From contig CAZEWG010000037.1 of the NCBI GenBank assembly GCA_964514485.1, positions 1-22,308 of the forward strand: a DNA stretch of 22,308 nt, given 5' to 3'. Made by a program: the position numbers and the translations under genes. The first letter of the stretch is position 1; each line of letters starts with the position of its first letter. Of this stretch, positions 1,216-18,189 are shown in pieces. The stretch is from an uncultured Pseudomonadales bacterium (GTDB taxonomy: Bacteria; Pseudomonadota; Gammaproteobacteria; Pseudomonadales; Oleiphilaceae). The notes under the pieces are model-generated. The model had not been told where the DNA came from. It worked only from the letters and a program-made list of their open reading frames with translations, and did no database searches.

Positions 1216-1860
1216 TTATTGGGTCAGTTCGGCTGCGGAATTGATCATGGCTACGCCGGCGTCTTTCATGGCGGCAATTGCGGCTTCCGTGGTGTCCGGT
1301 GCAATACCTCGGCAGGCCCCAAGGTTGACCACCACGTTAAAACCGGCGCGTTTCAGCTGCAGGGCGGTGGTTTTGACACAGTAGTCGGTGGCAAGCCCGC
1401 CCACGAGGACTATCTCCACTCCACGGGCCTTCAGTACTTCGATCACCCCGGTGCTGATGCGGTCTTTTAAGTCGTGATAGCAGGCACCATAGGGGTGCAT
1501 ATCCGGCTCCACGCCTTTGTAGACAGGAAAGTCATACTCCGTCTCTGCTGGCAGGCCATCCAGCAGCTCAAAGCCTTTGGTGCCGGGCACGCAGTGCAGG
1601 TTCCATCTCACATCCATGTTTTCTCCCTCCACAGGGCTCAGCATGGGCTGCTCCGGTGTGGCCAGCCACGCCGGATTGGCGGGGTGGGAGTCTTTGGAGA
1701 AGACGCGGGTACCGGCAAAGCGGGCCTGGGCATTGAGTTCAGCCACGATCAGATGACCTTCCGGTACCGGCAGCTCGTCCGGGCACAGTGGGGTGAAGCC
1801 TTTCTGGGCATCCACATCAAAGGCGGCGACTTTCGAGGGGCTCGGAAGCTGGATCATCAT
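1216..1860 (-). CDS. pncA: Nicotinamidase / pyrazinamidase (isochorismatase-like hydrolase)
   Basis: The 214-aa product starts with the VAAFDVDAQKGF motif and contains a catalytic Cys in the DYCVKTTA context, typical of PncA. Its stop lies 16 nt upstream of the pncB start, consistent with an operon. An AGGAG Shine-Dalgarno precedes the ATGATG start. Confidence 0.9.
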   Translation of the reverse strand: MMIQLPSPSKVAAFDVDAQKGFTPLCPDELPVPEGHLIVAELNAQARFAGTRVFSKDSHPANPAWLATPEQPMLSPVEGENMDVRWNLHCVPGTKGFELLDGLPAETEYDFPVYKGVEPDMHPYGACYHDLKDRISTGVIEVLKARGVEIVLVGGLATDYCVKTTALQLKRAGFNVVVNLGACRGIAPDTTEAAIAAMKDAGVAMINSAAELTQ

Positions 1861-2163: not shown

Positions 2164-2871
2164 GTGACTCAGCATCGACAGAACATCCTGGTCACCGTCG
2201 ATACCGCAATTTTCACGCTGCAGGACTCACAGCTACAGGTGCTGCTGGTGCAGCGGGCTACCGAGCCCTTCAAAGGGACCTGGGCATTGCCCGGCGGCGT
2301 GGTGCAGGAAGAGCAGGATAGCAGTCTGGAGCAGACGGCATTTCGCAAGCTGGCGGAAAAAACCGGCGTTGCCAGCCCCTATCTGGAGCAGGTGATGACC
2401 TTTGGCGGCCCGGAACGGGATCCCCGGGGATACAGCGTATCCGTTCTTTATATGGCGCTGTTGCGCAGCACGGAGCTGGTTCTGCAAGGGGATGACCGGG
2501 TCAGCGACATCGCCTGGGTGAGGGTGGATGGTGAACGGGTAGACCGGCCCCTGGCATTCGACCATGCCAAGCTGCTGGAGGCAGCCTGCCAGCGCTTGCG
2601 TTCCAAAGCCCAATATTCCTCTTTGATTGCCCACCTGCTGCCCGACGAATTCACCCTGTCCGAACTGCGGGAGGCCTACAGCAGCATTCTCGGGGTGTCC
2701 CTCAATGCCGCCGGTTTTCGTCGCCGGGTACTGCAAGCCGGCCTGGTGGAAGAGGTGAAGGGAGCCTTTCGCCACCATGGACGCCGTCCCGCCCAGCTTT
2801 ATCGTCTGCACCCCGAAAGCAACCAGGTGTACTTCGAAACCAACCTGATGTGGAGAGTTGGGGAGGGCTAG
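2164..2871 (+). CDS. nrtR: Nudix-related transcriptional regulator NrtR (Nudix ADP-ribose-binding domain plus C-terminal winged helix)
   Basis: The 235-aa product has an N-terminal Nudix fold (GTWALPGGVVQEEQDSSLEQTAFRKLAEKTGV) and a C-terminal wHTH-like region (FTLSELREAYSSILGVSLNAAGFRRRVLQAGLVEEV). It is divergent from pncA-pncB, which is the classic NrtR arrangement. The GTG start at 2164 follows a TAGGAG Shine-Dalgarno, and an in-frame TAA at 2146 rules out a longer N-terminus. Confidence 0.85.
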   Translation: MTQHRQNILVTVDTAIFTLQDSQLQVLLVQRATEPFKGTWALPGGVVQEEQDSSLEQTAFRKLAEKTGVASPYLEQVMTFGGPERDPRGYSVSVLYMALLRSTELVLQGDDRVSDIAWVRVDGERVDRPLAFDHAKLLEAACQRLRSKAQYSSLIAHLLPDEFTLSELREAYSSILGVSLNAAGFRRRVLQAGLVEEVKGAFRHHGRRPAQLYRLHPESNQVYFETNLMWRVGEG

Positions 2872-2890
2872 GCAGAAACTGGTTTCTGCC
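2871..2890. terminator. Perfect GC-rich hairpin between convergent nrtR and the 369-aa gene (bidirectional terminator candidate)
   Basis: GGCAGAAAC-TG-GTTTCTGCC is a 9-bp inverted repeat at 2871-2890. It overlaps the nrtR TAG stop (2869-2871) and the stop of the minus-strand gene (2890-2892). No U tract follows on either side. Confidence 0.4.
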
Positions 2891-3999
2891 TAAGCAAGTG
2901 CGAATACAGCGCCCACAGCAAGGCCTATCGCGAAGTACCAGAGATAATGTATGGAGGACGCAGGTTTCGCAGTCTCATGAGCTGTTGGTGTCATCTGATC
3001 TGGCTTTGCAGTGGCATGGGCCATTGGGGGAGTCTGATCAGGTTCTGCAGTGTCAGAGGTCACTTGTATGGCTTGATCTGACTGTACAGGGATAGAGGGT
3101 GTCTGTGCTGGTCGATCCGGCTCCGGGGTGTCGCTAGCTATCTCGGCGGAGGGGGCCTGCTCCGTGGGGGCTTCGGTTGTCAGCATATCCAGCTCTGAGC
3201 GGATGCTGTTTAGACGGGGCTCGATGCTGTCGCTAGAGGACTTTACGTCCTCTAGAAGAGATTGAATCTCCCGTGACATGAATTCAATCTCCTCTGAAAG
3301 AGGCTCCACGTCGTTCTGGAGGGGAACGATATGGGTTTGGTGCCAGGTGTCCGCCAAGTGGGCAAGCTGTGGATTGAGGGATGAGCGGGTGACCAGTTCA
3401 ACAGTATGGCTTGCACAATGTCGGGCTAGAACTGGAGAATCATATTCGTCGCCTACAACCAACCAATAGCGCTCTGGCGGCAATAGCTCATCTTGCTCGT
3501 CCAGGGCTTGTACGCGCCAGATCTGGCCCTTAATATTATCAGCGCCTGATGGCCCTCTGAGTACCTCAATGAGCTCTGGATCCCTTACTGCCACGTTCCA
3601 GATCACCAGTATCCGCTCTCCATTGGCATTGTGGGCAACGGCATTGAACGCCAATGCTGAGATAATCTCGCTGGATATGACCGCGGGTGTTCCGGCCCAA
3701 CCTATTAGGATATCTTGGCGTGCGCACTCAAGAGCAAGGGCGTATAGCGGGAGCTCGTCCATGCCGACGGGGTGCTGGGCGTCTTTCCATTCCGTCAGAA
3801 ACTCTCGCATTTCCTCAGGGTCAGAGGACATATAGCCAATGCCGGCGTTAATCTTGTGAACGAACTCCCCCAGGAAGCTGGGGCGCTCACCTGGTTGAGT
3901 TATGGTGGCGACATACATGGGCATATCCCGCCACTTTTCCAGAAAACCGACAAAGCTTGCCTTAATATCGTCTTGAAATTTTAAAAAACCGGCGGACAT
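2890..3999 (-). CDS. Hypothetical C-terminally tail-anchored membrane protein: globular N-terminal domain, short coiled coil, Pro/Thr/Gln-rich repeat linker and a single C-terminal TM helix
   Basis: The 369-aa ORF has an ATG at 3999-3997 with an AAGGAA Shine-Dalgarno 6 nt upstream. Its C-terminus SSIHYLWYFAIGLAVGAVFALA is a clear TM segment. The preceding linker is TSDTAEPDQTPPMAHATAKPDQMTPTAHETAKP. I could not assign the roughly 240-aa N-terminal domain to a family. It is the last gene of the flotillin operon direction. Confidence 0.7.
   Translation of the reverse strand: MSAGFLKFQDDIKASFVGFLEKWRDMPMYVATITQPGERPSFLGEFVHKINAGIGYMSSDPEEMREFLTEWKDAQHPVGMDELPLYALALECARQDILIGWAGTPAVISSEIISALAFNAVAHNANGERILVIWNVAVRDPELIEVLRGPSGADNIKGQIWRVQALDEQDELLPPERYWLVVGDEYDSPVLARHCASHTVELVTRSSLNPQLAHLADTWHQTHIVPLQNDVEPLSEEIEFMSREIQSLLEDVKSSSDSIEPRLNSIRSELDMLTTEAPTEQAPSAEIASDTPEPDRPAQTPSIPVQSDQAIQVTSDTAEPDQTPPMAHATAKPDQMTPTAHETAKPASSIHYLWYFAIGLAVGAVFALA
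2994..3100 (-). repeat. Imperfect 39-40 nt tandem repeat (3 copies) encoding the PDQ(T/M)xP(M/T)AH(A/E)TAK linker repeats
   Basis: TCTGATCTGGCTTTGCAGTG at 2994, TCTGATCAGGTTCTGCAGTG at 3033 and TTGATCTGACTGTACAGGGA at 3073 show a 39-40 nt periodicity inside the coding region. Confidence 0.4.
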
Positions 4000-4147
4000 G
4001 GGATTTCCTTATTCTGTTTCTCTATGCCATCCATGAGGGGATGTTCGCTTGTGGGTGATTGCAGCATCTAGCGCGGGCCCCAACAGCTCTGGGGCCTCTC
4101 ACGGAAGCAGGGTTGCTTGATACGGCTTTGGTGCTTCCAAGTTGCCT

Positions 4148-7100
4148 TTAGGAGGCGGGGTTGCCGTCTCCGCTGAAGGCGCCGCGCCGGCCATTGAGGT
4201 CAGTTCCCAAAGCACGCAGTTGCTCCATCAGCTCTCCCAGGCGCCGATAGGTGCGCACGTCAATGACCAGCTTGCCGTTCATGGCGCGGGCCAGTGGCTC
4301 GAAGCCGCTTTCCATGGTCGTGGTCAGCTTTTTAAGCATCTTGTCGAGGCCTGGAGCTGGCTGGTTAATGACTTCCACCCGGGGCTCCCGCTCCAGCAGT
4401 TGGGTGAGGCGATCCAGTAATGGCTCCATCAGTTCTTGCGGCAGCAGTGGGGGAGCCTCCTGGGACTCGGACTGGGCCCGTTCTGCCTGGGCGGCCAGGC
4501 TATTGAGCCCGGCCCGCAGGGCTTGAATCCCTTCCACGACGCCAATCAACTGGCGTACCACCCGGGCGCCTACATCCTCGTCGTCGCCCCCGGCGGACAT
4601 GCGGCGGCGGAACTCTGTCTTGATCTCTGTCCAGCGCTGTTCCTGTTCCGGTGTCATGTTGCCGCGCAGTTCGGCTAGTTTCAGCAGATTCTCCTCGGCT
4701 CCCGTGGTCAACAACTGGGCTTCGCCACGGTAGTGGTCGGCGATCAGTTGCATCAGCTCGGCCTCGGTCATCACTGAGGAGACCTTCTCCGCCATCTTGT
4801 TCATGTTGCGGTAGGAACCCTGCAGCTTGAACGGCGGCTCGGTGCGGTAGCTGTCGGCCTGGGCGCTGGAAGCGATATACTGCAGGTTGACCCTGAGGAT
4901 CACCTGCTGAATCACAAACAGCTTTTGCAGCACACTGACAATTTCCTGGCTTTCCGCCGCACTGTAGCTGTGGCTGAATTCCGTCGCGGCGACCGGCTTG
5001 CCTTGGGCCATATCCACAAAACGGTAGACGTCTTGCAGGTCACGGCTTGCCAGGGGGGCCAGCACCGGGTTGGAGGTGAGGGCGTTCTCGATGTAGCTCA
5101 GGGCAAAGGCTTCTTCGCTGCCCCCCAGTACGTCGCCGAGGTTGTACACATCGGCGCGGTTGGCGAGCATATCGGGAATGCGGAAGGTCTCGCCGGTTTC
5201 GGTGTAGGGGTTGCCGGCCATGACCACGCAGAATTTCTTGCCCCGCAGGTCATAGGTCTTGGCCTTGCCTTTCCACACACCTTCGATACGACGGGTGGCG
5301 TCACACAGGGAGATGAATTTCTGCAGAAACTCCGGATCCGTGTGCTGGATGTCATCCAGGTACAGCATCACGTTGTTGCCCATTTCCAGGGCCAGGTTGA
5401 GTTTCATCAGCTCCTGGCGTGCCGTGGAGTTACCGGCCTGGTCCGGGTCCAGGGAGCGGACTTCGTGGCCCAGGGAGGGGCAGTTGATACGCATGAACAC
5501 CAGCCCCAGGCGGTTGGCCACGTACTCCATCAGGGTGGTCTTACCGTAGCCGGGCGGTGAGATCAGCATCAGCAATCCCATGAGGTCGGAGCGCTTGTTA
5601 TCGCCCACCGTGCCCATTTGCTTGGCCAGGTTGTCGCCGATAATGGGCAGGTAGACTTCATTGATCAGCTTGTTGCGCACAAAGGTGGCAAGCGGTCGGG
5701 CCTTGAAGTCTTCCAGCCGCAGGCGTTCCCGTTCCCGCTGGAGAAACTGCAGGCGTGCGGCCTGGTAGCGCTCGAAGGCGGGAATGGTCACCGTCTGGTG
5801 GTGGGACAGGCGCTGGACAAATTCATCCAGCCGCAGCGTCAGGGTCTGGCCTTGTAGGTTGGGATGCTGCCCCAGCAGTCCGGTAATGGTCTGTTCCAGA
5901 TCCACTTCGCGAATATCCCTGGGGACCGGAATCTCCGCGGCCACCAGTGTCACGGCTTCATCCAGATAGTGCAGCCGTTCCGTCAGGCCTTCCCGTTTGA
6001 TCCAGGCGGCCAGCCAGGCAGTGGCCGTGGGCCAGGCACTATCTGCTTCACCTTCGGCGAATTTCAGGCTGTCGAGAAAGCCTTTCCACAGGCCAGCCTC
6101 CTGCAGGGAGTGGCGGAACTGTTCTGCCAGTTCGGCGGCGACATGGGTGGTCTCAAAGGCCAGGGCCTCTTTTGCCAGCTCCTCCACCAGATATTCGGCG
6201 GTCAGCGGTAAAGTCTCCGGGGCAAAGGGCAGATGGCGCTGTTCCACAAAGCTCTGCAGCCGGCTTTCCAGTTGGTTGACCAGGGCTTTGAAGGCTTCAT
6301 CGCTCCCCAGCCGCTCACGTAGCTGCACGGCGGAACGGGCCCGGTTGCGCCAGGCTTGGTTGTCCTTGTCGTGCTGTACCTGGGCCCAGTAATACACTGC
6401 CTGGGCCCGGACGGTGACCGGATAGCGCAAGGTGCCTGCTGCCCGGGCCTGGGGAATCAGCTGCTGCAGAATGAGGGCCGCGTCGTGGTCATGGATACCC
6501 CGTTCGTAGCCTTCCCGATAGCGGGGCCCGGCGTAGTCCCGTACCCGGGATACCAGGGCATCCAGGTTCTGGAGCTCTGCCAGGATCTCACTGCGCTTGG
6601 ATGCGAGTTCGCCTGCCTGTAACGCCTGCCAGAACTGATAGGCCAGGTATTCGGCCCGGTATACGCTGGTGGACTCTGAGGCCAGGGTCATGGTCCAGTA
6701 GGGCTTCAGCTCATTGAGCACCGGGTCGTCGACCACCTCGTAATAGTCGGTGCCGGTGAGGTGTTGGGCCAGGTGTTCACCCCGGGGTAGCAGCGTCAGG
6801 TCGACTTCCTGGGTGTTGACGCTGAACCGGTGGCGGGGCCCCAGCTTGATGACCTGGCCGCCTTCTTCGAAGATCTCCGCCTTATCCCGCAGGGCCCGCA
6901 CGCCCTGTTCGCGCATGGCCTTGAAGCGGGCGCTGAGGTCATCGGCCTTGACGGAGGCATCCAGCCCTTGCAGTTCTTCGATCAGCTGGCGCAGTTTGAG
7001 GATCAGCGGGTCGGAGGCGAAGAAGCTGTTAACTTCATCGGCCGTTTGGAACTTGTCCAGGCGCCGTTGCACGCTGGTGAGGATGCGGTTGGCGGCATCT

Positions 7101-9493
7101 TCCAGGTTCTGGGCCCGCTGCTGGCGGGCGTCCAGTAACTTCTGCTTGTGGGCCTCGAAGGCTTCGACGATTTCCTCGCGCTTGCCCAGGATATCCGCCA
7201 GGAACTGGTCGTAGTCGCTGAACTGGCTTTCCACTTCCTGCAATTGGGTGAGCAGGCGTGACAGTAGCTCATCGCAGCGATCCGGCGTATCCGCCATGGC
7301 CAGGGAGCTGGACACGCTTTGCTCCAGCAGGCGGAACTGGGCGGCGAACTGGGCTACGGCCTCGGCCGAGCCAATCTCCCGGCGCTTGTTGTCGGCGCGG
7401 GCCCGGCGCTGGTTAATCTGGGCATAGAGTTCGGAGACCGCGTCGATAATGCGGGTGCGGGTGGTAGCATCACCTTCCTGCAGGCCGGCAAGCAACTCCG
7501 ATACCAGCCCTAACCCTTGGGACTGCTGCTCGTACAGCTCGATGACTGCGGTAATCTGTTCCAGGGTCTGAGCCTCGGCCAGTTGCCCATCCAGCTCGGC
7601 CAAGGTCTTGTCATAGCTGGCCAGTGCCTGGGGCTTTGACAGGAATGCCAGGGTTTCTTTGGACAGGCGGGATTCCGTGGCGATGACCTGTTGTTCCAGT
7701 TGGTCGACGCGGGCCACATCCATATAACGATAGTCGCGGATGGTCAGCAGATGCCCCCGGTGACGGCGCAGTTCGGCCAAGGCGTCAATAAACAGGTCGG
7801 GACGGTCCCAGCTCTCCGGGCTGATCCGGCGCAGCAGGGCGGCCTGTGTCTGTTCCGCCTCGGCCAGGGCCTGGCGGGACTGCTGCTGGATGGCCTGGAC
7901 CTTTTCATATTCGTCGAGGATCAGCTCGCCGGTCTCGGCAATCTGTTTCAAGGCCTCGTCCAGACCGCCCAATTGTTCGGCCCCTAGCCAATGATAGGCG
8001 TCGAACAGCCGGGTAATGGCACGGATCAGGTCGTTGTAATGGCCGGGGCGGATATCCTCCTTGGCCATCATCCGTTCGATGCTGTAGAGCTCGGAAATTC
8101 CCCGCACCAGCTCGGCATTGCCGATTCTGCCGAGAAAGGTCTGTGAGCCACCGGCTTGGGCTGCGTGTTCCTCACTGAAGAAGGGAGTGCGCCAGATTTG
8201 CATGGCATGCACCCGGCTGGCTTCATCGGAAGCCTGCAACAGCACCAGGCGGCCATCGGGGAACAGGGCATAGCTGTGGCCCTGGATAGGGTTGGCCACA
8301 GCCTTATTGATAAGGTTGTAGGTGTGCAGGATCGCGCGGCCGTCTTCCGGGTGGTAGAACACGTACAGCACGTCCTCCCCGTTCGGGGAGACGATCCGTC
8401 GCTTAAAGCGGAAGCCGGCTGCATCCAGGTCAAACCGCTTGAGCTCACCAGTTTGCAGGTAGTAGCCGCTGGGATAAATGATGCCGTGATCTTCCGGCAA
8501 CTGCACGCAGGAGGCGCCAAGCTCGTCGATCCGTACCACTTCCCGGATCAGGCTGTTGTAGACGTAATGGCGTACCTGATCTTCCCGGTAAGGCTTGATG
8601 CGAACCAGGATCAAATTGCCCAGGGCGGCGTAATGGAACTCCGCGTCGTCCAGGGACTGGGTCTTGTCCTCGACCGGGTCGGCATAGATGCCCAGGCCCG
8701 TTTGGGTGTTGTTCTCCACCTTGAAGGTGATGTCACCCTGGATGTTGTCCACAAACAACTGATCCAGGATATTGATGTGGGGGTGACGCCCCTGCACGAT
8801 CTGGTCCCGGCCCACCGGGATCCAGTCAAAATCGGTTCGGGGCGGCAGGACCACATCCCGCTCGCCTCGGTTGTCCAGATACTCCAGCACCTCACCGGTA
8901 GGGGAGAGCGACCAGCGGAACACCCGGATATCCGATTCCTTTTCGCCAATACGGAAGTTGGCCAACAGCTTGCCGTCCCGTACTGCCAACTGCTGCAGCC
9001 AGGGGGCTTTGTAGAAGGTATAAAGCTCGGTGAAATCGGACTGGAACCGGCTGTTATCCAGAAAGCTGCCTTGCACCGGCTGGTGGATAAACTCCAACCC
9101 TTCCGGGCCTTCGTGCAGCTGGTACAGGGAGAAGACATCCTCCACCGCCGTGGTCTTCTGCAGGCCCTTGAAGACGTTGTAGCCCAGCAGGATGTACTGG
9201 CCGACCCGTACCGTATCCCTGGGGATGCAGTTGTGTTCGGTACGCGCCCGTGCCCTGCCGGTCACTTCCAGGCTGGTGCTGCCGAACTCCGCCAGGCGTT
9301 GCTGGTTCAGGTGCTCGATGCGCTGCTTGAGATCGCGGCCCTGCTCCAGCAGGCGGCGGCGAATCACTTCATAGGCGCCGCCCTGGGCGACGGCCTGGGA
9401 TACAAGGTCCTGTTGAATGTCCGAGGTCATGCCGAGTCCAGAAGAAAGGTTGTGAAATCGGTGGCGTTCCCTGAGAGGCGATGGTGATGCCAA
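4148..9493 (-). CDS. Giant (1781 aa) multidomain protein with an N-terminal beta-rich region, a central coiled coil, a single MoxR/AAA_5-like AAA+ ATPase module and a helical C-terminal region; no characterised family recognised
   Basis: A single uninterrupted ORF ends at a TAA stop at 4148-4150. The start is ambiguous. A TTG at 9493 has an AAGGG Shine-Dalgarno 8 nt upstream, and an ATG at 9430 (M22) has a poor Shine-Dalgarno. Walker A ISPPGYGKTT lies at about residue 1311 (nt about 5539-5565). Walker B is VMLYLDDIQH, sensor-1 is in VVMAGNPYTE, and an Arg-bearing IPDMLANRADVY motif resembles the MoxR LDRF region. Residues about 500-900 (nt about 6793-7993) are strongly helical with a heptad-like Q/E/L/A/R pattern. 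Confidence 0.8.
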   Translation of the reverse strand: MASPSPLRERHRFHNLSSGLGMTSDIQQDLVSQAVAQGGAYEVIRRRLLEQGRDLKQRIEHLNQQRLAEFGSTSLEVTGRARARTEHNCIPRDTVRVGQYILLGYNVFKGLQKTTAVEDVFSLYQLHEGPEGLEFIHQPVQGSFLDNSRFQSDFTELYTFYKAPWLQQLAVRDGKLLANFRIGEKESDIRVFRWSLSPTGEVLEYLDNRGERDVVLPPRTDFDWIPVGRDQIVQGRHPHINILDQLFVDNIQGDITFKVENNTQTGLGIYADPVEDKTQSLDDAEFHYAALGNLILVRIKPYREDQVRHYVYNSLIREVVRIDELGASCVQLPEDHGIIYPSGYYLQTGELKRFDLDAAGFRFKRRIVSPNGEDVLYVFYHPEDGRAILHTYNLINKAVANPIQGHSYALFPDGRLVLLQASDEASRVHAMQIWRTPFFSEEHAAQAGGSQTFLGRIGNAELVRGISELYSIERMMAKEDIRPGHYNDLIRAITRLFDAYHWLGAEQLGGLDEALKQIAETGELILDEYEKVQAIQQQSRQALAEAEQTQAALLRRISPESWDRPDLFIDALAELRRHRGHLLTIRDYRYMDVARVDQLEQQVIATESRLSKETLAFLSKPQALASYDKTLAELDGQLAEAQTLEQITAVIELYEQQSQGLGLVSELLAGLQEGDATTRTRIIDAVSELYAQINQRRARADNKRREIGSAEAVAQFAAQFRLLEQSVSSSLAMADTPDRCDELLSRLLTQLQEVESQFSDYDQFLADILGKREEIVEAFEAHKQKLLDARQQRAQNLEDAANRILTSVQRRLDKFQTADEVNSFFASDPLILKLRQLIEELQGLDASVKADDLSARFKAMREQGVRALRDKAEIFEEGGQVIKLGPRHRFSVNTQEVDLTLLPRGEHLAQHLTGTDYYEVVDDPVLNELKPYWTMTLASESTSVYRAEYLAYQFWQALQAGELASKRSEILAELQNLDALVSRVRDYAGPRYREGYERGIHDHDAALILQQLIPQARAAGTLRYPVTVRAQAVYYWAQVQHDKDNQAWRNRARSAVQLRERLGSDEAFKALVNQLESRLQSFVEQRHLPFAPETLPLTAEYLVEELAKEALAFETTHVAAELAEQFRHSLQEAGLWKGFLDSLKFAEGEADSAWPTATAWLAAWIKREGLTERLHYLDEAVTLVAAEIPVPRDIREVDLEQTITGLLGQHPNLQGQTLTLRLDEFVQRLSHHQTVTIPAFERYQAARLQFLQRERERLRLEDFKARPLATFVRNKLINEVYLPIIGDNLAKQMGTVGDNKRSDLMGLLMLISPPGYGKTTLMEYVANRLGLVFMRINCPSLGHEVRSLDPDQAGNSTARQELMKLNLALEMGNNVMLYLDDIQHTDPEFLQKFISLCDATRRIEGVWKGKAKTYDLRGKKFCVVMAGNPYTETGETFRIPDMLANRADVYNLGDVLGGSEEAFALSYIENALTSNPVLAPLASRDLQDVYRFVDMAQGKPVAATEFSHSYSAAESQEIVSVLQKLFVIQQVILRVNLQYIASSAQADSYRTEPPFKLQGSYRNMNKMAEKVSSVMTEAELMQLIADHYRGEAQLLTTGAEENLLKLAELRGNMTPEQEQRWTEIKTEFRRRMSAGGDDEDVGARVVRQLIGVVEGIQALRAGLNSLAAQAERAQSESQEAPPLLPQELMEPLLDRLTQLLEREPRVEVINQPAPGLDKMLKKLTTTMESGFEPLARAMNGKLVIDVRTYRRLGELMEQLRALGTDLNGRRGAFSGDGNPAS

Positions 9494-9570
9494 GGGCCGC
9501 CCTTGTTAGGGCGTGACCCAGGGAGCTCAAAGGTTTGGACTGCGCCCTCCAAAGGAGGGCACTAAGTGGC
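9494..9570 (-). promoter_or_regulatory. Two stem-loops in the 77-nt spacer between flotillin and the giant gene (possible attenuator or processing site)
   Basis: CGCCCTTGTTAGGGCG at about 9505-9521 has a 6-bp stem. GCCCTCCAAAGGAGGGC at 9543-9559 has a 7-bp stem. Neither is followed by a U tract on the minus-strand transcript. Confidence 0.3.
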
Positions 9571-11652
9571 TTAGCCGTCCGTGCCTGTGGTACCGGTGAG
9601 CTGGCTGCTGGCGGTTTTGACCACCGACTCCTTGCCACCGATAGCCAACAAGCGGTTCAGGGCTGCCTGGATGCTGGCATTGCGGGTTACGCCTTCCAGC
9701 CCCTTGCCCACTGATAGGCCCTTGGCGAATTGCTCGAAGTACTCGCCCTGGCCGCCGACGATTTCGATCTTGGCCTTCTGCAGCGCTGAGGACAGGACTT
9801 CGGCCTGTTCCTTGGCAATTTCCTTGTTGGCCTCGATGGACGCCATGGTTTCCTGAATGGCTGCATCCAGCTGGCGGGTCATCATCTCGAAGTCGCGAGC
9901 CTCGGGAGACATCTGGGCCATGGATTCGAACTTCTCCAACAGACCCTGAGCTTCTGCCTTGGCTTTCGCCAGCAGGGTATGGGCAGCCGCTTCGCCCTGT
10001 TCCCGTTGGCCCTTGGCCTCGGCCAGCAGCTTCTCTTCCAGTACCCGTGCTTCGACCAGACCTTCTTCCTCGATGGCTTTGGCCTTGGCCTTGATGATTT
10101 CGGCCTCTGCCATACCCTGTTCGCGCTGGCCCTTGGCCTCGGCCAGCATCCGCTCTTCCAGTACCCGTGCTTCGGCCATGCCTTCCTCCTCGAAGGCTTT
10201 GGCCTTGGCCTTGGTGACTTCGGCTTCCACCAGGCCTTCCCGCTCGAGGGCATCGGCCATGGCTTCTTTGACGCGGGCTGCTGCCAGGCCATCGGCCGCT
10301 TTCACCGCGCGGATACCTTCTGCCCGCTTGGCTTCGGCCAGGGCCCGCTTGTCGGCGGCTTGCAGTTCGGCTTCCGCCAGTACCTGGATTTCCCGGGCCT
10401 TGTGTGCGGCTTTCTGCTCTTCGGCTTCGGCCGCTTTCACAGCTTTGATCCGTTCTTCTTCTGCCTGGGCGGTGGCCTCGGTGATCTTCACCTGCTTCAG
10501 ACGCTCGGCTTCGGACAGTACATGGGTATCTTTGATCCGCTCTTCTTCTTCGGCCACTTTCTTCTCGGTGGCGATCCGCTCGCTGATAGTGACCGCAATG
10601 AGCTTGCGCTCTTCCTCCAGCGCCTTCTCTTTCTCGATGCGCTGCAGTTCCACTTCCCGCTCCCGGGTCACGGCTGCCAACTGGCGCGCTTTCTCCACGT
10701 TTTCAGCCTCGACCACCACGGCCCGCTCGCGGTTCTTGTCGGCCACTTCCACCTGACGGCGCTTGTTGGCTTCGGCAATCTCGATGGCCTCTTGTGCGGC
10801 AATGCGGGCTTCTTCTGCGCGACGACGCTCCTGCTCCCGCACGGTTTCCGCTTCGGCCTGCTCCCGGGCCCGGATCACTTCGATCTCACGCTGCTGCCGC
10901 GCCTGGGCTTCGGCCCGTTGTTTCTCGAGTTCCAGAAGCGCCTCGGTGGTGGCCGTATCCTTGCGGTCAATTTCCAGCTTCTGGTCGTTACGCAGGCGGT
11001 TGGTTTCTTCCGCCTGGGTTTTGACCAGTTCGGTCAGCTTGCGGATACCCTGGGCATCCATGGCATTGTTGGGGTCGAGCAGCTCGATGGGCGTCTGCTC
11101 CAGGTAGTCGATGGCCACGTCTTCCAGGATGTAGCCATTGAGGTCCTCGCCGATGGTCTTGACGATTTCTTCCCGGAACCGGATGCGGTTGTCGAACAGC
11201 TCCACAAACTCCAGTTGTTTGCCCACTGATTTCAGGGCTTCGGAGAACTTGGCATTGAACAGCTCGTTGACGGCTTCCTTGTTGGAGGCGCGGGCCACGC
11301 CTACGGACTTGGCCACCTTAAGCACATCTTCAGGCGTTTCATTGACGCGGATGTAGAAGGCGACCGTGATGTCGGCGCGGATATGGTCCTTACAGATCAG
11401 GCCTTCCTTGCCCCGCCGGTCAATTTCCAGGGTCAGCACGGAGATCCGCATGACTTCCTTTTTGTGGATAACCGGCCAGACCATGGCGCCGGTGAAGTAC
11501 ACCTTAGGCGTCTGGGATAGGTCGTTGACGATCAACGCCTCTCCCTGTTCCACCTTGACGTAGAACAGCTTGAACAGAAACAGCACAGCCAGAATGACGG
11601 CAAAGATGACGCCAACGGCCAGCAAAAATGGCAGCACAATAGACAAAGACAT
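9571..11652 (-). CDS. yqiK: Flotillin-family SPFH protein (YqiK-like), long form with C-terminal Ala/Glu-rich repeats
   Basis: The 693-aa product has an N-terminal TM/hairpin (LSIVLPFLLAVGVIFAVILAVLFLF) and an SPFH/band-7 core (EALIVNDLSQTPKVYFTGAMVWPVIHKKEVMRISVLTLEIDRRGKEGLICKDHIRADITVAFYIRV). A long EA-rich helical region with 40-aa tandem repeats follows. The ATG at 11652 has an AAGGAG Shine-Dalgarno 6 nt upstream, 29 nt downstream of the yqiJ stop. Confidence 0.9.
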   Translation of the reverse strand: MSLSIVLPFLLAVGVIFAVILAVLFLFKLFYVKVEQGEALIVNDLSQTPKVYFTGAMVWPVIHKKEVMRISVLTLEIDRRGKEGLICKDHIRADITVAFYIRVNETPEDVLKVAKSVGVARASNKEAVNELFNAKFSEALKSVGKQLEFVELFDNRIRFREEIVKTIGEDLNGYILEDVAIDYLEQTPIELLDPNNAMDAQGIRKLTELVKTQAEETNRLRNDQKLEIDRKDTATTEALLELEKQRAEAQARQQREIEVIRAREQAEAETVREQERRRAEEARIAAQEAIEIAEANKRRQVEVADKNRERAVVVEAENVEKARQLAAVTREREVELQRIEKEKALEEERKLIAVTISERIATEKKVAEEEERIKDTHVLSEAERLKQVKITEATAQAEEERIKAVKAAEAEEQKAAHKAREIQVLAEAELQAADKRALAEAKRAEGIRAVKAADGLAAARVKEAMADALEREGLVEAEVTKAKAKAFEEEGMAEARVLEERMLAEAKGQREQGMAEAEIIKAKAKAIEEEGLVEARVLEEKLLAEAKGQREQGEAAAHTLLAKAKAEAQGLLEKFESMAQMSPEARDFEMMTRQLDAAIQETMASIEANKEIAKEQAEVLSSALQKAKIEIVGGQGEYFEQFAKGLSVGKGLEGVTRNASIQAALNRLLAIGGKESVVKTASSQLTGTTGTDG
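9994..10233 (-). repeat. Tandem 120-nt (40-aa) direct repeat, two full copies plus a partial one, inside the flotillin C-terminal region
   Basis: ccctgttcccgttggcccttggcctcggccagcagcttctcttccagtacccgtgcttcg at 9995 recurs as ccctgttcgcgctggcccttggcctcggccagcatccgctcttccagtacccgtgcttcg at 10115. The encoded units are KAKAKAFEEEGMAEARVLEERMLAEAKGQREQGMAEAEII and KAKAKAIEEEGLVEARVLEEKLLAEAKGQREQGEAAAHTLLA. Confidence 0.6.
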
Positions 11653-11681
11653 ATCGACTCCTTGTTCGACGGGCGGGATTT

Positions 11682-12323
11682 TTATCCGGTGAACTCGTGC
11701 TCCGGCACGATTCGGTATGCGTTTTGGTCAGAGAGGTGTTCAACAAGGATGGCCTGGTCGCCACGCTTCAACTTGCCAGATTCGGCACGCACCTTGAGGA
11801 TCAGCTTGGCGCCGTCCAGGGTGACAGTGGCCTCCCCAAAGTGCTCATCCACCACGGAGCTGCGCACCACACAAGTGCGGCCCAGTAATGCAGGAACCGT
11901 GGCGGGACGGTGGAGTTTACGAAACAGGGGGCGCAGGGGGCGCACACTGGCGGCGGTGGCGAACAGGGCCAGAGCTGTGGCGATCAGGATCACCAGGCTG
12001 CCCGCCAGCCAATAGAACAACCCTGTGGGCAACAGGCTGAGCAGGAAATGGACTGCGAAATAGGAGGTCAACCAGGCGTAAAGGACCAGTAGCGTGATCA
12101 CCAGGGAGGCAGGGACACCGGTTAATCCTAGGGTGACCATGAAACCGCCCAGTCCGCTGAGGCTGACGGAATCGCCACTGATGTCGAAATCGAAATCCGT
12201 TTCAAATAGGTCTGGGCTGACCAGGCCGAACAGCGCGAACAACCAGTAGAGGCAGACAACACCCAGAAGTACGCTGAACAGGATAGTGGGGAACGACAGT
12301 GCGTTTGCCAAAAACTCTTCCAT
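11682..12323 (-). CDS. yqiJ: NfeD/YqiJ-family inner-membrane protein with a C-terminal OB-fold, the usual flotillin partner
   Basis: The product has multiple TM helices (FPTILFSVLLGVVCLYWLFALFGLV, LVITLLVLYAWLTSYFAVHFLLSLL, LFYWLAGSLVILIATALALFATAA). Its soluble C-terminal beta domain (GRTCVVRSSVVDEHFGEATVTLDGAKLILKVRAESGKLKRGDQAILVEH) is typical of NfeD. I prefer the ATG at 12323-12321 (MEEFLANALSF), which has a GGAAGA Shine-Dalgarno. The ORF track extends to a TTG at 12353 with no Shine-Dalgarno. Confidence 0.85.
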   Translation of the reverse strand: MEEFLANALSFPTILFSVLLGVVCLYWLFALFGLVSPDLFETDFDFDISGDSVSLSGLGGFMVTLGLTGVPASLVITLLVLYAWLTSYFAVHFLLSLLPTGLFYWLAGSLVILIATALALFATAASVRPLRPLFRKLHRPATVPALLGRTCVVRSSVVDEHFGEATVTLDGAKLILKVRAESGKLKRGDQAILVEHLSDQNAYRIVPEHEFTG

Positions 12324-12460
12324 TAGTCTTCCATTAGTCCGTCCCTCAGACAACTTATGTCAAAGTAGCCTTTACACATGAACCACGTCAACCCTCAAGT
12401 CGCAAAAAGTGATCCCATTCCGAAAAACAGCGACTTTTGAAGGAAAGGGATAAAATTTTA

Positions 12461-12490
12461 TTGACATAAATTGTCATAGTCGCCTAGTTT
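12461..12490 (+). promoter_or_regulatory. Candidate sigma70 promoter for the yjfI-yjfJ operon, overlapped by the inverted repeat TGACATAAATTGTCA
   Basis: A TTGACA -35 box lies at 12461-12466 and TAGTTT lies at 12485-12490 with an 18-bp spacer. An AT-rich upstream tract GGATAAAATTTTA precedes them. The 5-bp inverted arms TGACA/TGTCA at 12462-12476 overlap the -35 box and are a possible repressor site. Confidence 0.3.
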
Positions 12491-12608
12491 GTGAACAGGA
12501 CAGTTGATGTCGCTTTGCCAGAAAGGCCCATGCCGCAGTTCGGAAACTCACTGCCTGTCAAAGGACTGTTCAACGATTGAAGGCCACCATTGCAGAAGGG
12601 AGTTGCCA

Positions 12609-14304: not shown

Positions 14305-14331
14305 GCCTTGTGGATCCAAGGCTAATTTATT
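14305..14331 (+). terminator. Hairpin plus T-rich tract downstream of the 110-aa gene
   Basis: GCCTTG-TGGATC-CAAGGC has a 6-bp stem at 14305-14322. TAATTTATT follows at 14323-14331. This region is AT-rich and noncoding-looking, which argues against the ORF track's 14310 start for the next gene. Confidence 0.4.
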
Positions 14332-14475
14332 ACCTCCTTAAAACGGAAATATTGCTCAGATTTTTCTGGTGCCCCTTAAAAGCTCTGCTACTTTTATGGG
14401 AGTTGCGGGCATTTTGCTTGGCCGCAGTCGACACCCACTTTTATTGGCGTTGCATTCAAGCCACAGGAAAAATCT

Positions 14476-15428
14476 ATGCAGCTCTCAAGAACGCTTGCTC
14501 TGTTTTGTGTGGAGCCCTGGCTCTCGGTAATCCATTCCCGGCACAAGCCTGGGGAAGTCATTTCGAGCAAGTCAGAGCTGACGCTGTCAAAGGAGATGCC
14601 AAAGCCCAAACAGCCCTGGGCAATATGTATCACGATGGTTTTGGGGTGGAGAAGGATATCGCCAAAGCCCTGGAGTGGTATCGCAAGGCTGTCGATCAAG
14701 GCTATGGGGAGGCTCAATTCCGGCTTGGCCACGAGTACTCAACAGGCCATGGAGTGACCGCTGATCAGGAAATGGCCGTTAAGCTGTTTAAGATGGCTGC
14801 AGCCCAAGGGCATGGCGCTGCACAGTTCCGGCTGGCTGAATGTTATTTGGCGGGACTCGGGGTTCAGAAAGATTCGTTTGAGGCCCTAGTCTGGTACAAG
14901 AAGTCAGCCGATGCCGGACACCTGAATGGCCTGTTGAAGATGGCCGACTTCCATTATCGGGAAAAAGAGTGGCCGCAAGCCTTGAGATATTATGAAAAGG
15001 CAGCGGAACAGCGTAGTAGTGAGGCCCAGTATGTGCTTGGTTTGATGTATTTGCAGGGGCAGGGTGTTGACGCGGATGATAAGAAAGGGGCTCGCTATAT
15101 AATGCTTGCCGCTACTGATGATAAGCATATCGCAGCCAAAGCTGTCTATGGGCATTTGTTATCAAAGGGCAGGGGCGTCTCCAAGAATCCCGATCTGGCC
15201 TATGAGTATTTGTCTGATGCGGCCGAGAAAGACGATGTGGAAGCTATGTTTTTGTTGGCGGAAGGATTGTACTCCGGGGAAATCAATCTGCCTGGCTCGG
15301 ATCTGGTTGCAGCATATAGTGGCGAGTCAGTTGACGATGTGCTGAAGCAGGAAGCCAAGGATTGGTATGAAAAAGCTGCTGCCGCCGGAGACTCCAGGGC
15401 ACGATACAGGCTAAGGGAACGTTACTGA
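14476..15428 (+). CDS. Secreted Sel1-like repeat (SLR/TPR-like) protein; start codon and frame at the 5' end unresolved
   Basis: At least seven Sel1 repeats are present (AQTALGNMYHDGFGVEKDIAKALEWYRKAVDQGYGEAQFRLGHEY, AAQGHGAAQFRLAECYLAGLGVQKDSFEALVWYKKSA, AEQRSSEAQYVLGLMYLQGQGVDADDKKGARY and others). A signal-peptide-like segment KNACSVLCGALALGNPFPAQA-WG lies in the repeat frame from 14478, but that frame has no ATG, GTG or TTG. An ATG at 14476 has an AGGA Shine-Dalgarno 7 nt upstream but sits in the +1 frame. GC content is lower than in the surrounding DNA. Confidence 0.65.
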
Positions 15429-15844: not shown

Positions 15845-16420
15845 ATGGAAGCTTTTCTACTCTCGACTGGCATTGTGGCGCTCGCTGAAATCGGCGATAA
15901 GACCCAATTGCTCGCCTTCGTCCTCGCTGCGAAATTTCGCAAACCTCTTCCCATCATTCTGGGTATCCTGGTGGCCACCCTGGCCAATCATGCTTTCGCG
16001 GGGGCAGTGGGCGCCTGGATTACCACTCTGGTCGACCCGGCCATTCTGCGTTGGATATTGGGTATTTCCTTTCTGGCCATGGCCGTTTGGATCCTGATTC
16101 CCGACAAGTTGGAGGAAGACGACACCCATCTTGCGCGTTTCGGTGTGTTCGGCACCACCGTTCTGGCCTTTTTCTTGGCCGAAATGGGCGATAAAACCCA
16201 GGTTGCCACCGTTGCATTAGCAGCGCAGTATGCCGCCTTTTTCACAGTGGTCGCGGGTACCACGCTTGGTATGATGATCGCCAATGTGCCCGCGGTGCTG
16301 TTAGGGGATCGCATAGCCAACCGGCTTTCAATCCGGCTGGTGCATGGCATTGTGGCCGTTGTCTTCGTGATTCTGGGAATTGCGGTTTTGGCAGGGGTGG
16401 ATGAATCACTGGGGTTCTGA
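15845..16420 (+). CDS. UPF0016 / GDT1 / TMEM165-family cation (Mn2+/Ca2+) transporter, MneA-like
   Basis: The 191-aa, 6-TM protein carries the family signature E-x-G-D-(K/R)-(T/S) twice, as LAEIGDKTQ in the N-half and LAEMGDKTQ in the C-half. This is the internally duplicated antiparallel architecture of the family. Confidence 0.85.
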   Translation: MEAFLLSTGIVALAEIGDKTQLLAFVLAAKFRKPLPIILGILVATLANHAFAGAVGAWITTLVDPAILRWILGISFLAMAVWILIPDKLEEDDTHLARFGVFGTTVLAFFLAEMGDKTQVATVALAAQYAAFFTVVAGTTLGMMIANVPAVLLGDRIANRLSIRLVHGIVAVVFVILGIAVLAGVDESLGF

Positions 16421-16448: not shown

Positions 16449-16469
16449 GGCATCAGGCCCCCTCGATGA
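16449..16469. terminator. GC hairpin between convergent UPF0016 and nhaP2 genes
   Basis: AGGGGGC-ATCAG-GCCCCCT has a 7-bp stem and overlaps the nhaP2 stop codon. The T run GGTTTTTAT lies just upstream on the plus strand, so this is not a canonical intrinsic terminator in either direction. Confidence 0.3.
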
Positions 16470-18189
16470 CTTCCGTATCTGGCCGGCGAATACCCACTGT
16501 GGTGATCCGGTTTTGCAGCATGCTCCGGACGGAGAGGATCACTTCACCCCGAAAGATTTCAGCCCCTTCGGTGACCTGGTCGCCGAGTTCCTGCCGCAGG
16601 AACTGGTCCAGCGTCAATTCAGGGTCCGTGCCCAGATCCAGGCCATAGGAATGCAATAGATGCTTGACTCGATTGCTGCCTTTGACGCGGAGCTCCTGGT
16701 CGGGCAGATCACTGGCGCCTATTTCCGCGGCATCCGAGAACACATAATCCACAAAGGCCCGCGTTTCTGGTTTGATGACCACAAACAGGCTGTCGCCGGC
16801 GTATAGCCGGGTCGAGCCGCGGGGAGGAATAACCTCGGTATTCCGGGCAATCATGGCGATGACCACGCTTTCTGGAAGTGCCAGTTGTGATAGTAGGCGT
16901 CCGGCTGCTTTAGAATGGTCGCCCAGCGTGTATTCCACAATTTCCGCATCCACATCGCCTAGTGCTGTAATCTCAAGGGTCGCGGCAGGCGTGGCGGGGG
17001 GCTTTTCCGTCAGGCCCAGTTTGCGGGCCACCATGGGCAAGGTGGAGCCTTGGACAGTGGCAGAAATCAAGACAACGAAAAAGACCACGTTGAAAATCAG
17101 CGGGGCCCCCGGGAGGTCATAGATCAGGGGAAAGATCGCAAGGATAATGGGTACCGATCCCCGTAGTCCGACCCAGGATACCAGGGTAATTTCCCGGGCG
17201 TTGAAGCCGAAGAGCTGAAGCACTGGAACGACTGCAATGGGCCGTGCAATAAACACCAGCACCAGGGCGATCATCAGGCCTTCCTTCCAGACTTCCAGGA
17301 GTGAAGTCGGGTTAACCAAGAGTCCCAACACCACGAACATGGTGATCTGACTGAACCAGGCCAGGCCGTCATGAAACAGGAAGGTACTGCGCTGGAACAC
17401 AAAGCGGCTGTTGCCGATCAGGACCCCCGCTAGGAAAATAGCCAGGAAGCCGCTGCCCCCGAGGTTGGCTGCAATACCAAAGGCTGCCAGGCCACAGGCT
17501 GCAACCATCACCGGGTACAGGCCCGAGGCTCCCAGTTGAATCCGGTTGATCACGTGGATTGCTGCCCAGCCCACGGCCAGGCCGACGGCGGCGCCTATCC
17601 CCATCTGCATGACAAATAGCTGGAGGAGGGAAAAACCCAGCGGCAGGTCATTGACCAAGACCTCCAGCAGGCCGACCGTTAGGAAAATGGCCATGGGGTC
17701 GTTGGAGGCGCTCTCAATTTCCAGAATGGATTTCAACCGTTTGTTGATATAGATGCCTGCATTCCGTAACAAGGAAAAAACCGCGGCAGCATCGGTAGAG
17801 CCGACAATGGCTCCTAGTAGCAGGCCTTCCAGAAGGGACAGGTCCAGAACCCAGGCTGCGGCTAGTCCGGTGATTGCCGCTGTGACCAGAACGCCGAGGG
17901 TGGCGAGCACTGATGCGGGCTTCCAGACCAGCTTTACGGAAGACATTGGAGTTTGCAGGCCACCATCAAATAGGATCATGGCGAGTGCGAGGGTGCCCAT
18001 GGCGTGGGCCGCAACGGGGTTGTCGAATACAACACCGCCAATTCCGCCTTCCCCGGCCAGAATGCCGGTGAGCAGAAAAAGCACAAGGACGGGGAGTCCG
18101 AGACGAGCAGAGAGCTTGCTGGAGAGAATACCCAAGAGGATCAGGATGGCCGCCAGCAGAATCAGCTTATCGATGGCAAACAATTGCAA
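16453..18189 (-). CDS. nhaP2: CPA1-family K+(Na+)/H+ antiporter with a C-terminal RCK/TrkA-C domain (NhaP2 / CvrA-like)
   Basis: The 578-aa product has about 12 TM helices beginning MQLFAIDKLILLAAILILLGILSSKLSARLGLPVLVLFLLTGILAGEGGIG. Its soluble C-terminal regulatory domain (VVIAMIARNTEVIPPRGSTRLYAGDSLFVVIKPETRAF) matches the NhaP2/CvrA architecture. Confidence 0.85.
   Translation of the reverse strand: MQLFAIDKLILLAAILILLGILSSKLSARLGLPVLVLFLLTGILAGEGGIGGVVFDNPVAAHAMGTLALAMILFDGGLQTPMSSVKLVWKPASVLATLGVLVTAAITGLAAAWVLDLSLLEGLLLGAIVGSTDAAAVFSLLRNAGIYINKRLKSILEIESASNDPMAIFLTVGLLEVLVNDLPLGFSLLQLFVMQMGIGAAVGLAVGWAAIHVINRIQLGASGLYPVMVAACGLAAFGIAANLGGSGFLAIFLAGVLIGNSRFVFQRSTFLFHDGLAWFSQITMFVVLGLLVNPTSLLEVWKEGLMIALVLVFIARPIAVVPVLQLFGFNAREITLVSWVGLRGSVPIILAIFPLIYDLPGAPLIFNVVFFVVLISATVQGSTLPMVARKLGLTEKPPATPAATLEITALGDVDAEIVEYTLGDHSKAAGRLLSQLALPESVVIAMIARNTEVIPPRGSTRLYAGDSLFVVIKPETRAFVDYVFSDAAEIGASDLPDQELRVKGSNRVKHLLHSYGLDLGTDPELTLDQFLRQELGDQVTEGAEIFRGEVILSVRSMLQNRITTVGIRRPDTEVIEGA

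Follow-up and report, generated by a model that had tools for sequence, protein, structure and literature searches.

A PspA-associated flotillin/AAA+ ATPase cassette with a divergent PspA unit and putative palindromic operators in an uncultured member of the Oleiphilaceae

We analyzed a 22,308-nt stretch of DNA, hereafter the window, which comprises positions 1 to 22,308 of contig CAZEWG010000037.1 in the assembly GCA_964514485.1 of an uncultured Pseudomonadales bacterium (Oleiphilaceae). The minus strand carries genes for a small NfeD-like membrane protein, a flotillin, a giant ATPase and a tail-anchored protein, and on the plus strand a unit containing a PspA gene is transcribed away from them across an intergenic region of 285 nt. 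An earlier examination made from the sequence alone (the sequence-only reading) had proposed the four minus-strand open reading frames (ORFs) as an extended flotillin cassette, and the coordinates and strand of all four were confirmed. The genes of the locus, including a putative ribbon-helix-helix (RHH) gene, are as follows:

11682-12353, minus strand: YqiJ/NfeD2-like ORF, 223 aa with a TTG start, or 213 aa with ATG 12323 (11682..12323)
9571-11652, minus strand: YqiK-type flotillin (SPFH2), 693 aa
4148-9493, minus strand: giant ATPase, 1781 aa with TTG 9493, or 1760 aa with ATG 9430 (4148-9430)
2890-3999, minus strand: tail-anchored protein, 369 aa
12609..13016, plus strand: YjfI-type DUF2170 protein, 135 aa
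13129..13821, plus strand: PspA/IM30 family protein of the YjfJ type, 230 aa
13891..14223, plus strand: RHH-like protein of 110 aa, after pspA, candidate regulator

Gene callers selected the shorter forms in six essentially identical metagenome contigs, starting the giant at ATG 9430 (1760 aa) and the NfeD-like gene at ATG 12323 (213 aa). The gaps between the four genes are 29 nt (yqiJ-like/flotillin), 77 nt (flotillin/giant; 140 nt with ATG 9430) and 148 nt (giant/369-aa gene), matching the values of the sequence-only reading for the starts chosen there, which included the TTG for the giant. The Shine-Dalgarno sequence it had placed at the 369-aa gene was found as AAGGA 8 nt 5' of the ATG. 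A consensus scan found neither a sigma-70-like promoter nor a canonical intrinsic terminator in the gaps of the four-gene run, and no sigma-54 promoter (TGGCAC-N5-TTGCA) near the locus. Identical sequences are known solely from metagenome assemblies, the six identical contigs being without variation, and the nearest genome match is a 4.5-kb contig of a metagenome-assembled genome (MAG) labeled “Proteobacteria bacterium” at 89% identity.

We compared the window with 84 loci from other organisms by searching their six-frame ORFs with the window proteins; a one-genome-per-species scan, in which more than 551 relatives of the giant were detected, contributed 80 retrieved loci. Immediately upstream of the giant, and on its strand, 82 of the 84 loci have a flotillin gene; in the remaining two the contig begins inside the ATPase gene. 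Of the 75 loci for which 3.2 kb or more of upstream DNA is available, 73 keep the order NfeD-like, flotillin, giant. Carriers of this core belong to at least five phyla and include Gamma-, Beta- and Zetaproteobacteria, Myxococcota, Actinomycetota, Deinococcota, Bacteroidota and one Clostridia MAG. When plasmids were searched with tblastn, a small membrane protein, a flotillin and the ATPase turned up in the same order on Pseudomonas pQBR103 and on Deinococcus, Streptomyces and Hymenobacter plasmids. The yqiJ-like, flotillin and giant genes are a conserved cassette core. The four-gene cassette of the sequence-only reading therefore stands for these three members and falls for the 369-aa gene, which was found in none of the 84 loci; the gene-neighborhood comparison that it had proposed as a check places the giant, and not the 369-aa gene, in synteny with flotillin/NfeD across phyla.

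The flotillin is homologous to Escherichia coli YqiK, with 30% identity over 467 aa by BLASTP (E 2e-41) and an hhalign probability of 99.9% (reference YqiK and YqiJ were taken from NC_000913.3). Its single N-terminal transmembrane (TM) segment (aa ~5-30) is followed by an SPFH domain, a long coiled coil rich in Glu and Ala, and a C-terminal region. The window protein had no match in Pfam, NCBIfam or PDB sequences, even at E <= 10 or with family profiles; Pfam Band_7 was detected in 5 of the 29 members of its family (best E 5e-11), the window protein not among them. The NfeD-like protein encoded 29 nt upstream is polytopic, with hydrophobic segments at aa 4-40 and 58-130. Its pairwise BLASTP comparison with E. 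coli YqiJ was not significant, and the window protein has no Pfam NfeD, NCBIfam or PDB-sequence match, Pfam NfeD matching one of the 28 family members. The profile of this 28-member family (A3) aligns with YqiJ by hhalign with a probability of 93.8% (E 1.7e-7, 139 columns) over the TM region and the C-terminal domain; the C-terminal domain is predicted to be OB-like, and the kinship with YqiJ appears at profile level only. The sequence-only reading had named the pair NfeD(YqiJ) and flotillin(YqiK), identities that are supported by the YqiK BLASTP and YqiJ profile matches although Pfam and NCBIfam recognize neither protein.

The pair resembles the NfeD2-SPFH2 modules yqiJ-yqiK of E. coli and yuaF-floT of Bacillus subtilis in its YqiK-homologous flotillin, its YqiJ-related upstream protein, and its gene order and spacing. 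It differs in that E. coli has no ATPase gene downstream, and in that the window flotillin is 140 aa longer, has an expanded and partly duplicated coiled coil, and lacks a Band_7 match. The duplication is as follows:

9995..10224, strand not applicable: 120-nt tandem duplication in the flotillin coiled coil, 1.9 copies, 89% identical (Tandem Repeats Finder)

It repeats an Ala/Glu/Lys-rich segment of ~40 aa, AKAKA(F/I)EEEG...AEAKGQREQG, and the region also yields a strong negative AT and GC skew at 9.5-11.5 kb. A second, perfect tandem duplication of 11 nt at 12316-12337 (TCTTCCATTAG twice, plus strand) spans the Shine-Dalgarno/ATG region of the yqiJ-like gene, where the coding strand has CTAATGGAAGA two times in a row and thereby two ATG GAA GA. 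starts.

The third member of the core, the giant ATPase, was considered unplaceable in the sequence-only reading. It belongs to the Pfam families DUF3686 (E 9.5e-189; aa 54-501; 7991-9334) and DUF7902 (E 3.7e-22; aa 622-706; 7376-7630), and a 2024 publication already links it to flotillin, YqiJ and PspA (PMC11237479). A single AAA/AAA_5 module occupies aa 1308-1431 (AAA_5, 28.6 bits against a cut-off of 22), and no TM segments were predicted by hydrophobicity/TM analysis. The family comprises at least 3,588 homologous protein clusters, and homologs 43-56% identical occur in Pseudomonadota, Myxococcota, Actinomycetota, Deinococcota, Bacteroidota and one Clostridia MAG. Two AlphaFold2 models, made with 41 homologs as input and together spanning the entire chain, predict the order N-terminal helix (residues 19-49, preceding the propeller), beta-propeller, helical hairpins/coiled coil, all-helical domain, AAA+ module and C-terminal helices. 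The parts map to the window as follows:

8189..9268, minus strand: beta-propeller, residues 55-414 (1760-aa numbering), ~27 strands; model m3101e9a9b234, mean predicted local distance difference test score (pLDDT) 81.7
6881..8173, minus strand: helical/coiled-coil region, residues 420-850, ~430 residues, including DUF7902; from DSSP of the model
5741..6658, minus strand: all-helical domain, residues 925-1230, a high-confidence prediction preceding the ATPase
4856..5578, minus strand: AAA+ module with Walker A SPPGYGKT, Walker B hDDIQ (Asp-Asp), sensor-1 GNPY, and MLANRAD with a candidate Arg finger

This agrees with the anatomy given in the sequence-only reading, namely one AAA_5 module, an N-terminal beta-rich region, which is the propeller, and a coiled coil of about 400 residues, here ~430. 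The propeller falls inside the DUF3686 match and in the model probably has seven blades; its Foldseek matches in PDB are generic propellers and include the WD40 protein Ski8, the kelch protein KLHDC3, paraoxonase and prolyl oligopeptidase (E 1e-6 to 1e-4). Six of its residues, H239, D283, E304, C329, H406 and H429, are invariant across four phyla. No informative structural match was obtained for the all-helical domain (residues 925-1230). The AAA+ module is modeled with a beta-hairpin between helix alpha3 and the sensor-1 strand, and its closest folds are the MoxR-type CbbQ/NorQ, ClpB-NBD2 and midasin. Walker A, hDDIQ and MLANRAD are kept in all 83 homologs compared and sensor-1 GNPY in 80 of the 83, which points to strong selection on the nucleotide site.

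Two other placements of the ATPase were tried and rejected. A head of the SbcC/RecN/SMC type was discarded on the grounds that Walker A and B are 65 residues apart within one AAA+ module (aa 1313-1381), that no ABC/SMC family matches, and that the neighbors encode membrane proteins. The Vps4-like classical AAA clade, characterized by an N-terminal MIT domain and a core without the pre-sensor-1 hairpin, was likewise set aside.

The fourth gene of the minus-strand run has a different standing. Its product has the architecture given in the sequence-only reading: an acidic globular part (aa 1-215; 3355-3999), a helical segment (3175-3354), a P/T/A/Q-rich linker (aa 276-345; 2965-3174) and a single C-terminal TM segment (aa 350-369; 2893-2952). 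Besides being absent from the 84 loci, homologs were missing from a word-indexed search of 5.8 billion clusters, which returned the protein itself only, and from JGI metagenome contigs; an exhaustive phmmer search of 1.84 billion representatives gave nothing but one 119-aa fragment at 88% identity. Pfam, NCBIfam, PADLOC and PHROGs contain no matching family. The GC content at third codon positions (GC3) is 0.72-0.78 in the three core genes and 0.67-0.72 in the neighbors, in rough agreement with the earlier statement that the cassette resembles its flanks, but 0.56 in the 369-aa gene, which suggests a different history. Given the lack of a detectable homolog and the atypical codon usage, the 369-aa protein is not a conserved component. 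The gene is a lineage-restricted accessory in a variable slot outside the conserved machine, and not the cassette member it had been taken for. Spacing and the absence of a terminator suggest that it is probably co-transcribed with the core, and its product is possibly a membrane adaptor.

In other genomes the slot 3' of the ATPase gene holds unrelated genes, encoding PLD/HKD proteins (~230 aa) in 12 loci and, in nine, a rhomboid-like membrane protein (~190 aa) whose gene often runs over the stop codon of the ATPase gene. A double-CxxC Zn-ribbon protein (~180 aa) is encoded in eight loci, in the slot or sometimes between flotillin and ATPase. In Xanthomonadales the slot contains a coiled-coil protein and a protein that is TelA-like by eye only. 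Marinobacter sp. MBR-99 (L042:15330-16946) and four metagenome relatives encode a 538-aa protein with a single C-terminal TM segment 24-35 nt 3' of the giant, the MBR-99 and metagenome proteins (L093-L097) being 70-93% identical; other Marinobacter species have no tail-anchored gene in this position. The profile of the 538-aa proteins is collinear with the 369-aa protein over 178 columns at 26% identity, a similarity that is not significant (hhalign P 0.009, probability 4%; BLASTP E 1.3).

The divergent unit begins with a DUF2170 gene (Pfam E 9e-34; BLASTP against E. coli YjfI E 1e-13), a family that has been assigned to the CesT/Tir-like chaperones (PMC11237479), followed by a PspA gene whose product matches PspA_IM30 (E 3.9e-34) and is 29% identical to E. 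coli YjfJ over its full length (E 1e-20). A PspA homolog is encoded within ~5 kb upstream of the core in 37 of 74 loci and a DUF2170 homolog in 38 of 74. One packed operon, duf2170-pspA-(110-aa gene)-nfeD-flot-giant, with starts and stops that overlap or nearly touch, unites the genes in Burkholderiales, Pseudoalteromonas and Thiodiazotropha; in the first two a Zn-ribbon gene (ZnR) may stand between flot and giant. The divergent layout of the window was found in four of the 37 PspA-linked loci, from three Marinobacter species and one Cellvibrionaceae genome. The sequence-only reading had mentioned the PspA operon as a fitting neighbor; with an adjacent dyad in 37 of 74 loci, fused operons and common palindromes (see below), the link is real and stronger than was claimed.

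Ravi, Aravind, Gennaro et al. (mSystems 2024; preprint 2020) described in silico a system of CesT/Tir-PspA with a YqiJ/YuaF-type TM protein and sometimes a PLD/HKD hydrolase (PMC11237479). They reported an operon of a Band-7/flotillin and a “beta-propeller-coiled-coil-AAA+ ATPase”, exemplified by Dokdonia donghaensis ANH61663.1, whose architecture string in the supplement matches the domains seen here, and noted that shortened operons without PspA are more widely distributed (PMC11237479). The window is a further member of this system, and we are highly confident in identifying the locus as a PspA-associated flotillin/AAA+ system. Shared with the published description are the DUF2170/CesT-like protein, PspA, the YqiJ-like TM protein, the flotillin with TM segment, SPFH domain and coiled coil, and the ATPase with propeller, coiled coil and AAA+ module. 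In contrast to the published system, the PspA unit of the window is divergent rather than part of one co-directional operon, an orphan tail-anchored gene stands 3' of the ATPase where the paper has a PLD/HKD gene, and an RHH-like gene accompanies a conserved palindromic candidate operator, the RHH gene of the paper occurring only in another PspA operon class.

Homologs of the 110-aa RHH-like protein follow pspA in 13 of 74 loci. The family comprises at least 1,791 clusters, a few of which are named “Ribbon-helix-helix protein CopG domain-containing” in UniRef, and its alignment (A6) has the pattern of two strand-helix-helix (RHH-like) units. The protein aligns in register with CopG by hhalign, but weakly, at a probability of 22%. 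It has no Pfam match, and profile A6 gave nothing significant against PDB sequences. Among its non-significant matches were the RHH protein AvtR (E 0.44) and, for the C-terminal half, the Vps4 MIT domain (E 0.43, 13.9 bits), a domain whose known binding partners are proteins of the ESCRT-III/PspA type.

The divergent intergenic region has a 15-nt inverted repeat (I1) that can be broken down into copies of a palindrome of 13 bp, GACA-N5-TGTC (GACAT-N3-ATGTC; consensus GACATnTTATGTC), present three times in the window at 12349, 12463 and 12499:

12349..12361, strand not applicable: palindrome 1, operator-like, GACAACTTATGTC, just upstream of the yqiJ-like start; inverted repeat I1
12463..12475, strand not applicable: palindrome 2, operator-like, GACATAAATTGTC, divergent intergenic region
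12499..12511, strand not applicable: palindrome 3, operator-like, GACAGTTGATGTC, divergent intergenic region

Of 29 occurrences of GACA-N5-TGTC in the window and 1.88 Mb of loci, 26 lie no more than 350 nt upstream of a DUF2170 gene. The motif is present in 12 of the 13 loci with the 110-aa gene, as well as in the window, and in none of the 25 DUF2170 loci without it (Fisher p 1.7e-9, not corrected for phylogeny). This co-occurrence of gene and palindrome is new with respect to earlier descriptions of the system. The motif is most simply read as the putative operator of an RHH-type autoregulator. As the palindromes sit between both divergent units, they would put the flotillin/ATPase cassette under joint control with the PspA unit, and the core and yjfI-pspA-RHH most likely make up a single regulon governed by the RHH-like protein.

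Several published findings bear on what such a system could do. SPFH proteins form cages, HflK/C enclosing the AAA+ protease FtsH (PMC13086221, PMC11222466), and QmcA-YbbJ is a cytoplasmic cage of 26 heterodimers (PMC13086221, PMC11222466). NfeD OB domains bind SPFH proteins (PMC13086221, PMC11222466, PMC8581546, PMC7619361), and FloA-NfeD of Staphylococcus aureus stabilizes unfolded proteins without ATP (PMC13086221, PMC11222466). In B. subtilis an SPFH protein brings PspA to the membrane (PMC8581546). According to a 2025 review, bacteria appear to lack a Vps4-like ATPase for PspA (PMC7619361).

Three known systems offer comparisons. With HflK/C-FtsH the cassette shares, as an analogy drawn from the literature (PMC13086221, PMC13220708), an inner-membrane SPFH scaffold with genetic and functional ties to an AAA+ ATPase. 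FtsH, however, is a membrane-anchored AAA protease of the classical clade and the HflK/C cage is periplasmic, whereas the giant has neither TM segment nor protease domain and its AAA+ module appears MoxR-like; homology is limited to the AAA+ fold. Like the ESCRT-III/Vps4 systems of archaea and eukaryotes, the locus places the gene for a polymer of the PspA/ESCRT-III superfamily beside that for an AAA+ ATPase, an arrangement that suggests ATP-driven polymer turnover; Ravi et al. raise the same idea. The giant departs from the MoxR remodelers CbbQ, NorQ and RavA in that its locus has no gene for a VWA-domain partner, and in its 1,280-residue N-terminal extension, the absence of an evident helix-2 insert in its model and the Asp-Asp of its Walker B motif.

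We propose, with our judgment evenly balanced, that the locus is a PspA-associated flotillin/AAA+ envelope-stress module in which the giant acts as an ATP-driven remodeler. A more specific mechanism, which we suggest tentatively and by analogy, is that the giant remodels or recycles the flotillin scaffold and/or PspA polymers during membrane stress. The flotillin would insert through its N-terminal TM segment, its long coiled coil building a cage or lattice on the inner membrane that faces the cytoplasm, and the OB-fold tail of the NfeD-like protein would stabilize this assembly, while PspA would polymerize on damaged membrane. The giant would oligomerize through its AAA+ module, with coiled-coil stalks and propellers reaching the flotillin and/or PspA assemblies, and ATP binding and hydrolysis might then remodel, disassemble, load or unload them in the manner of Vps4 on ESCRT-III, FtsH with HflK/C, or MoxR-type remodelers. 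The broadest version of this scheme, which we rather doubt, would make the giant the missing ATP-driven engine of membrane-repair scaffolds, a counterpart of Vps4 or ClpB, under an RHH repressor acting through GACAT-N3-ATGTC and with interchangeable accessories (tail-anchored, rhomboid, PLD and Zn-ribbon proteins).

A number of observations weigh against the proposal as a whole. Half of the loci have no adjacent PspA gene, and PspA may therefore not be the substrate. The RHH fold of the 110-aa protein is a candidate assignment only. Co-transcription in the window is deduced solely from spacing and the absence of terminators, and a stable hairpin is predicted 3' of the flotillin gene. Finally, experimental work on the giant ATPase family did not come up in literature searches.

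Other explanations of the locus were weighed against the same data. As the main alternative, the giant might be a nucleotide-dependent sensor or scaffold rather than a remodeler, its propeller sensing a ligand or a damaged-membrane cue, slow hydrolysis switching its oligomeric state, and its coiled coils recruiting or releasing flotillin and PspA. The Asp-Asp of hDDIQ, kept in all 83 homologs, is DnaA-like, an aromatic pore-loop motif is not visible in the sequence, and the propeller carries the invariant residues listed above (His, Asp, Glu and Cys) and looks like propellers that bind ligands or act as enzymes, among them paraoxonase and 6-phosphogluconolactonase. We nevertheless consider this explanation unlikely, as the closest folds of the AAA+ module are those of mechanical remodelers, no ligand site was identified in the propeller, and the conserved sensor-1 and Arg-finger candidates argue for real hydrolysis. 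The sequence-only model, in which all four genes form one machine, with the 369-aa protein as the obligate partner of the ATPase in the membrane, could appeal to the co-directional position of the gene 148 nt downstream, with a good Shine-Dalgarno sequence and no intervening terminator, and to the tail-anchored 538-aa proteins of Marinobacter sp. MBR-99 and its four relatives with their faint collinear similarity. That similarity is not significant, however, other Marinobacter lack such a gene, and elsewhere the slot is filled by PLD, rhomboid, Zn-ribbon or unrelated genes; together with the near-complete absence of homologs from the locus and database searches and the deviating GC3, this makes the model quite improbable.

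Less probable still is an anti-phage or abortive-infection system in which the giant senses infection and membrane or PLD/rhomboid proteins are the effectors. The patchy distribution, the copies on plasmids and megaplasmids (pQBR103 and those of Deinococcus, Streptomyces and Hymenobacter), the very large ATPase and the variable accessory genes, an HKD/PLD enzyme among them, would fit such a role. Against it, none of the four proteins matches PADLOC-DB v2 models at E <= 0.01, PHROGs yields only generic ATPase matches, the window neighbors are housekeeping and ion-transport genes rather than a defense island, and the constant partners (flotillin, NfeD and PspA) are membrane-maintenance proteins. 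The public records, including Pfam PF12458 and NCBI, call the family “DNA repair ATPase”, “DNA repair protein” or “ATPase involved in DNA repair”, and the inherited name is all that speaks for a function in DNA repair. We found in the giant no DNA-binding, nuclease or ABC/SMC-type head domains, its single AAA+ module lies in the C-terminal third with Walker motifs that are not split, and its invariant neighbors are membrane proteins, so that this function is scarcely credible. The name appears to be an inherited misannotation, and we infer that it derives from coiled-coil similarity to COGs of the SbcC/SMC type.

The favored envelope-stress proposal addresses an open question, the turnover of flotillin cages and of PspA/ESCRT-III-like polymers in bacteria. 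In a widespread cassette, the gene for a large and strictly conserved ATPase directly follows the flotillin/NfeD pair, and often PspA, yet every public record labels its product a DNA repair ATPase. Correction of this label, the candidate regulator with its putative operator, and the existence of tractable carriers (Stenotrophomonas maltophilia, Marinobacter, the Pseudomonas alcaligenes group, Myxococcus and Proteus mirabilis) provide a handle for experimentalists. Because the association has already been published computationally, the window contributes little more than a further member, its local peculiarities being the divergent layout, the candidate RHH operator and the orphan tail-anchored gene.

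Of the minor features within the core, GC-rich hairpins without a U-tract occur 3' of the flotillin stop (z -2.6) and 3' of the giant stop (z -0.7). The former is located as follows:

9542..9562, minus strand: 9-bp GC-rich hairpin without a U-tract, directly after the flotillin stop; the RNA fold of 9431-9573 has -51.2 kcal/mol (z -2.6)

It received no score as an intrinsic terminator in the terminator scan, and may be an attenuator or stabilizer that sets the flotillin:ATPase expression ratio.

Beyond the RHH-like gene follows a gene for a Sel1-repeat protein (14310-15428, plus strand, 372 aa; Pfam Sel1 E 1e-49), of which no homolog was seen in the other loci. Its GC3 is 0.53 against 0.67-0.78 for the rest and, considered with the low value of the 369-aa gene, suggests that both outer ends of the system may be recent additions. 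The opposite edge of the cassette adjoins an NAD-salvage cluster, whose NrtR-type Nudix regulator (2164-2871, plus strand) is convergent with the tail-anchored gene, 18 nt separating the stops. An isochorismatase/PncA-like gene is present at 1216-1860 (minus strand), and NAPRTase (PncB) follows on longer contigs (L005/L009). On the far side of the PspA unit are genes for a divalent cation/proton antiporter of the GDT1 family (15845-16420, plus strand), an NhaP-type Na+/H+ exchanger with TrkA-C and CorC domains (16453-18189, minus strand) and a LysR regulator (19045-19941).

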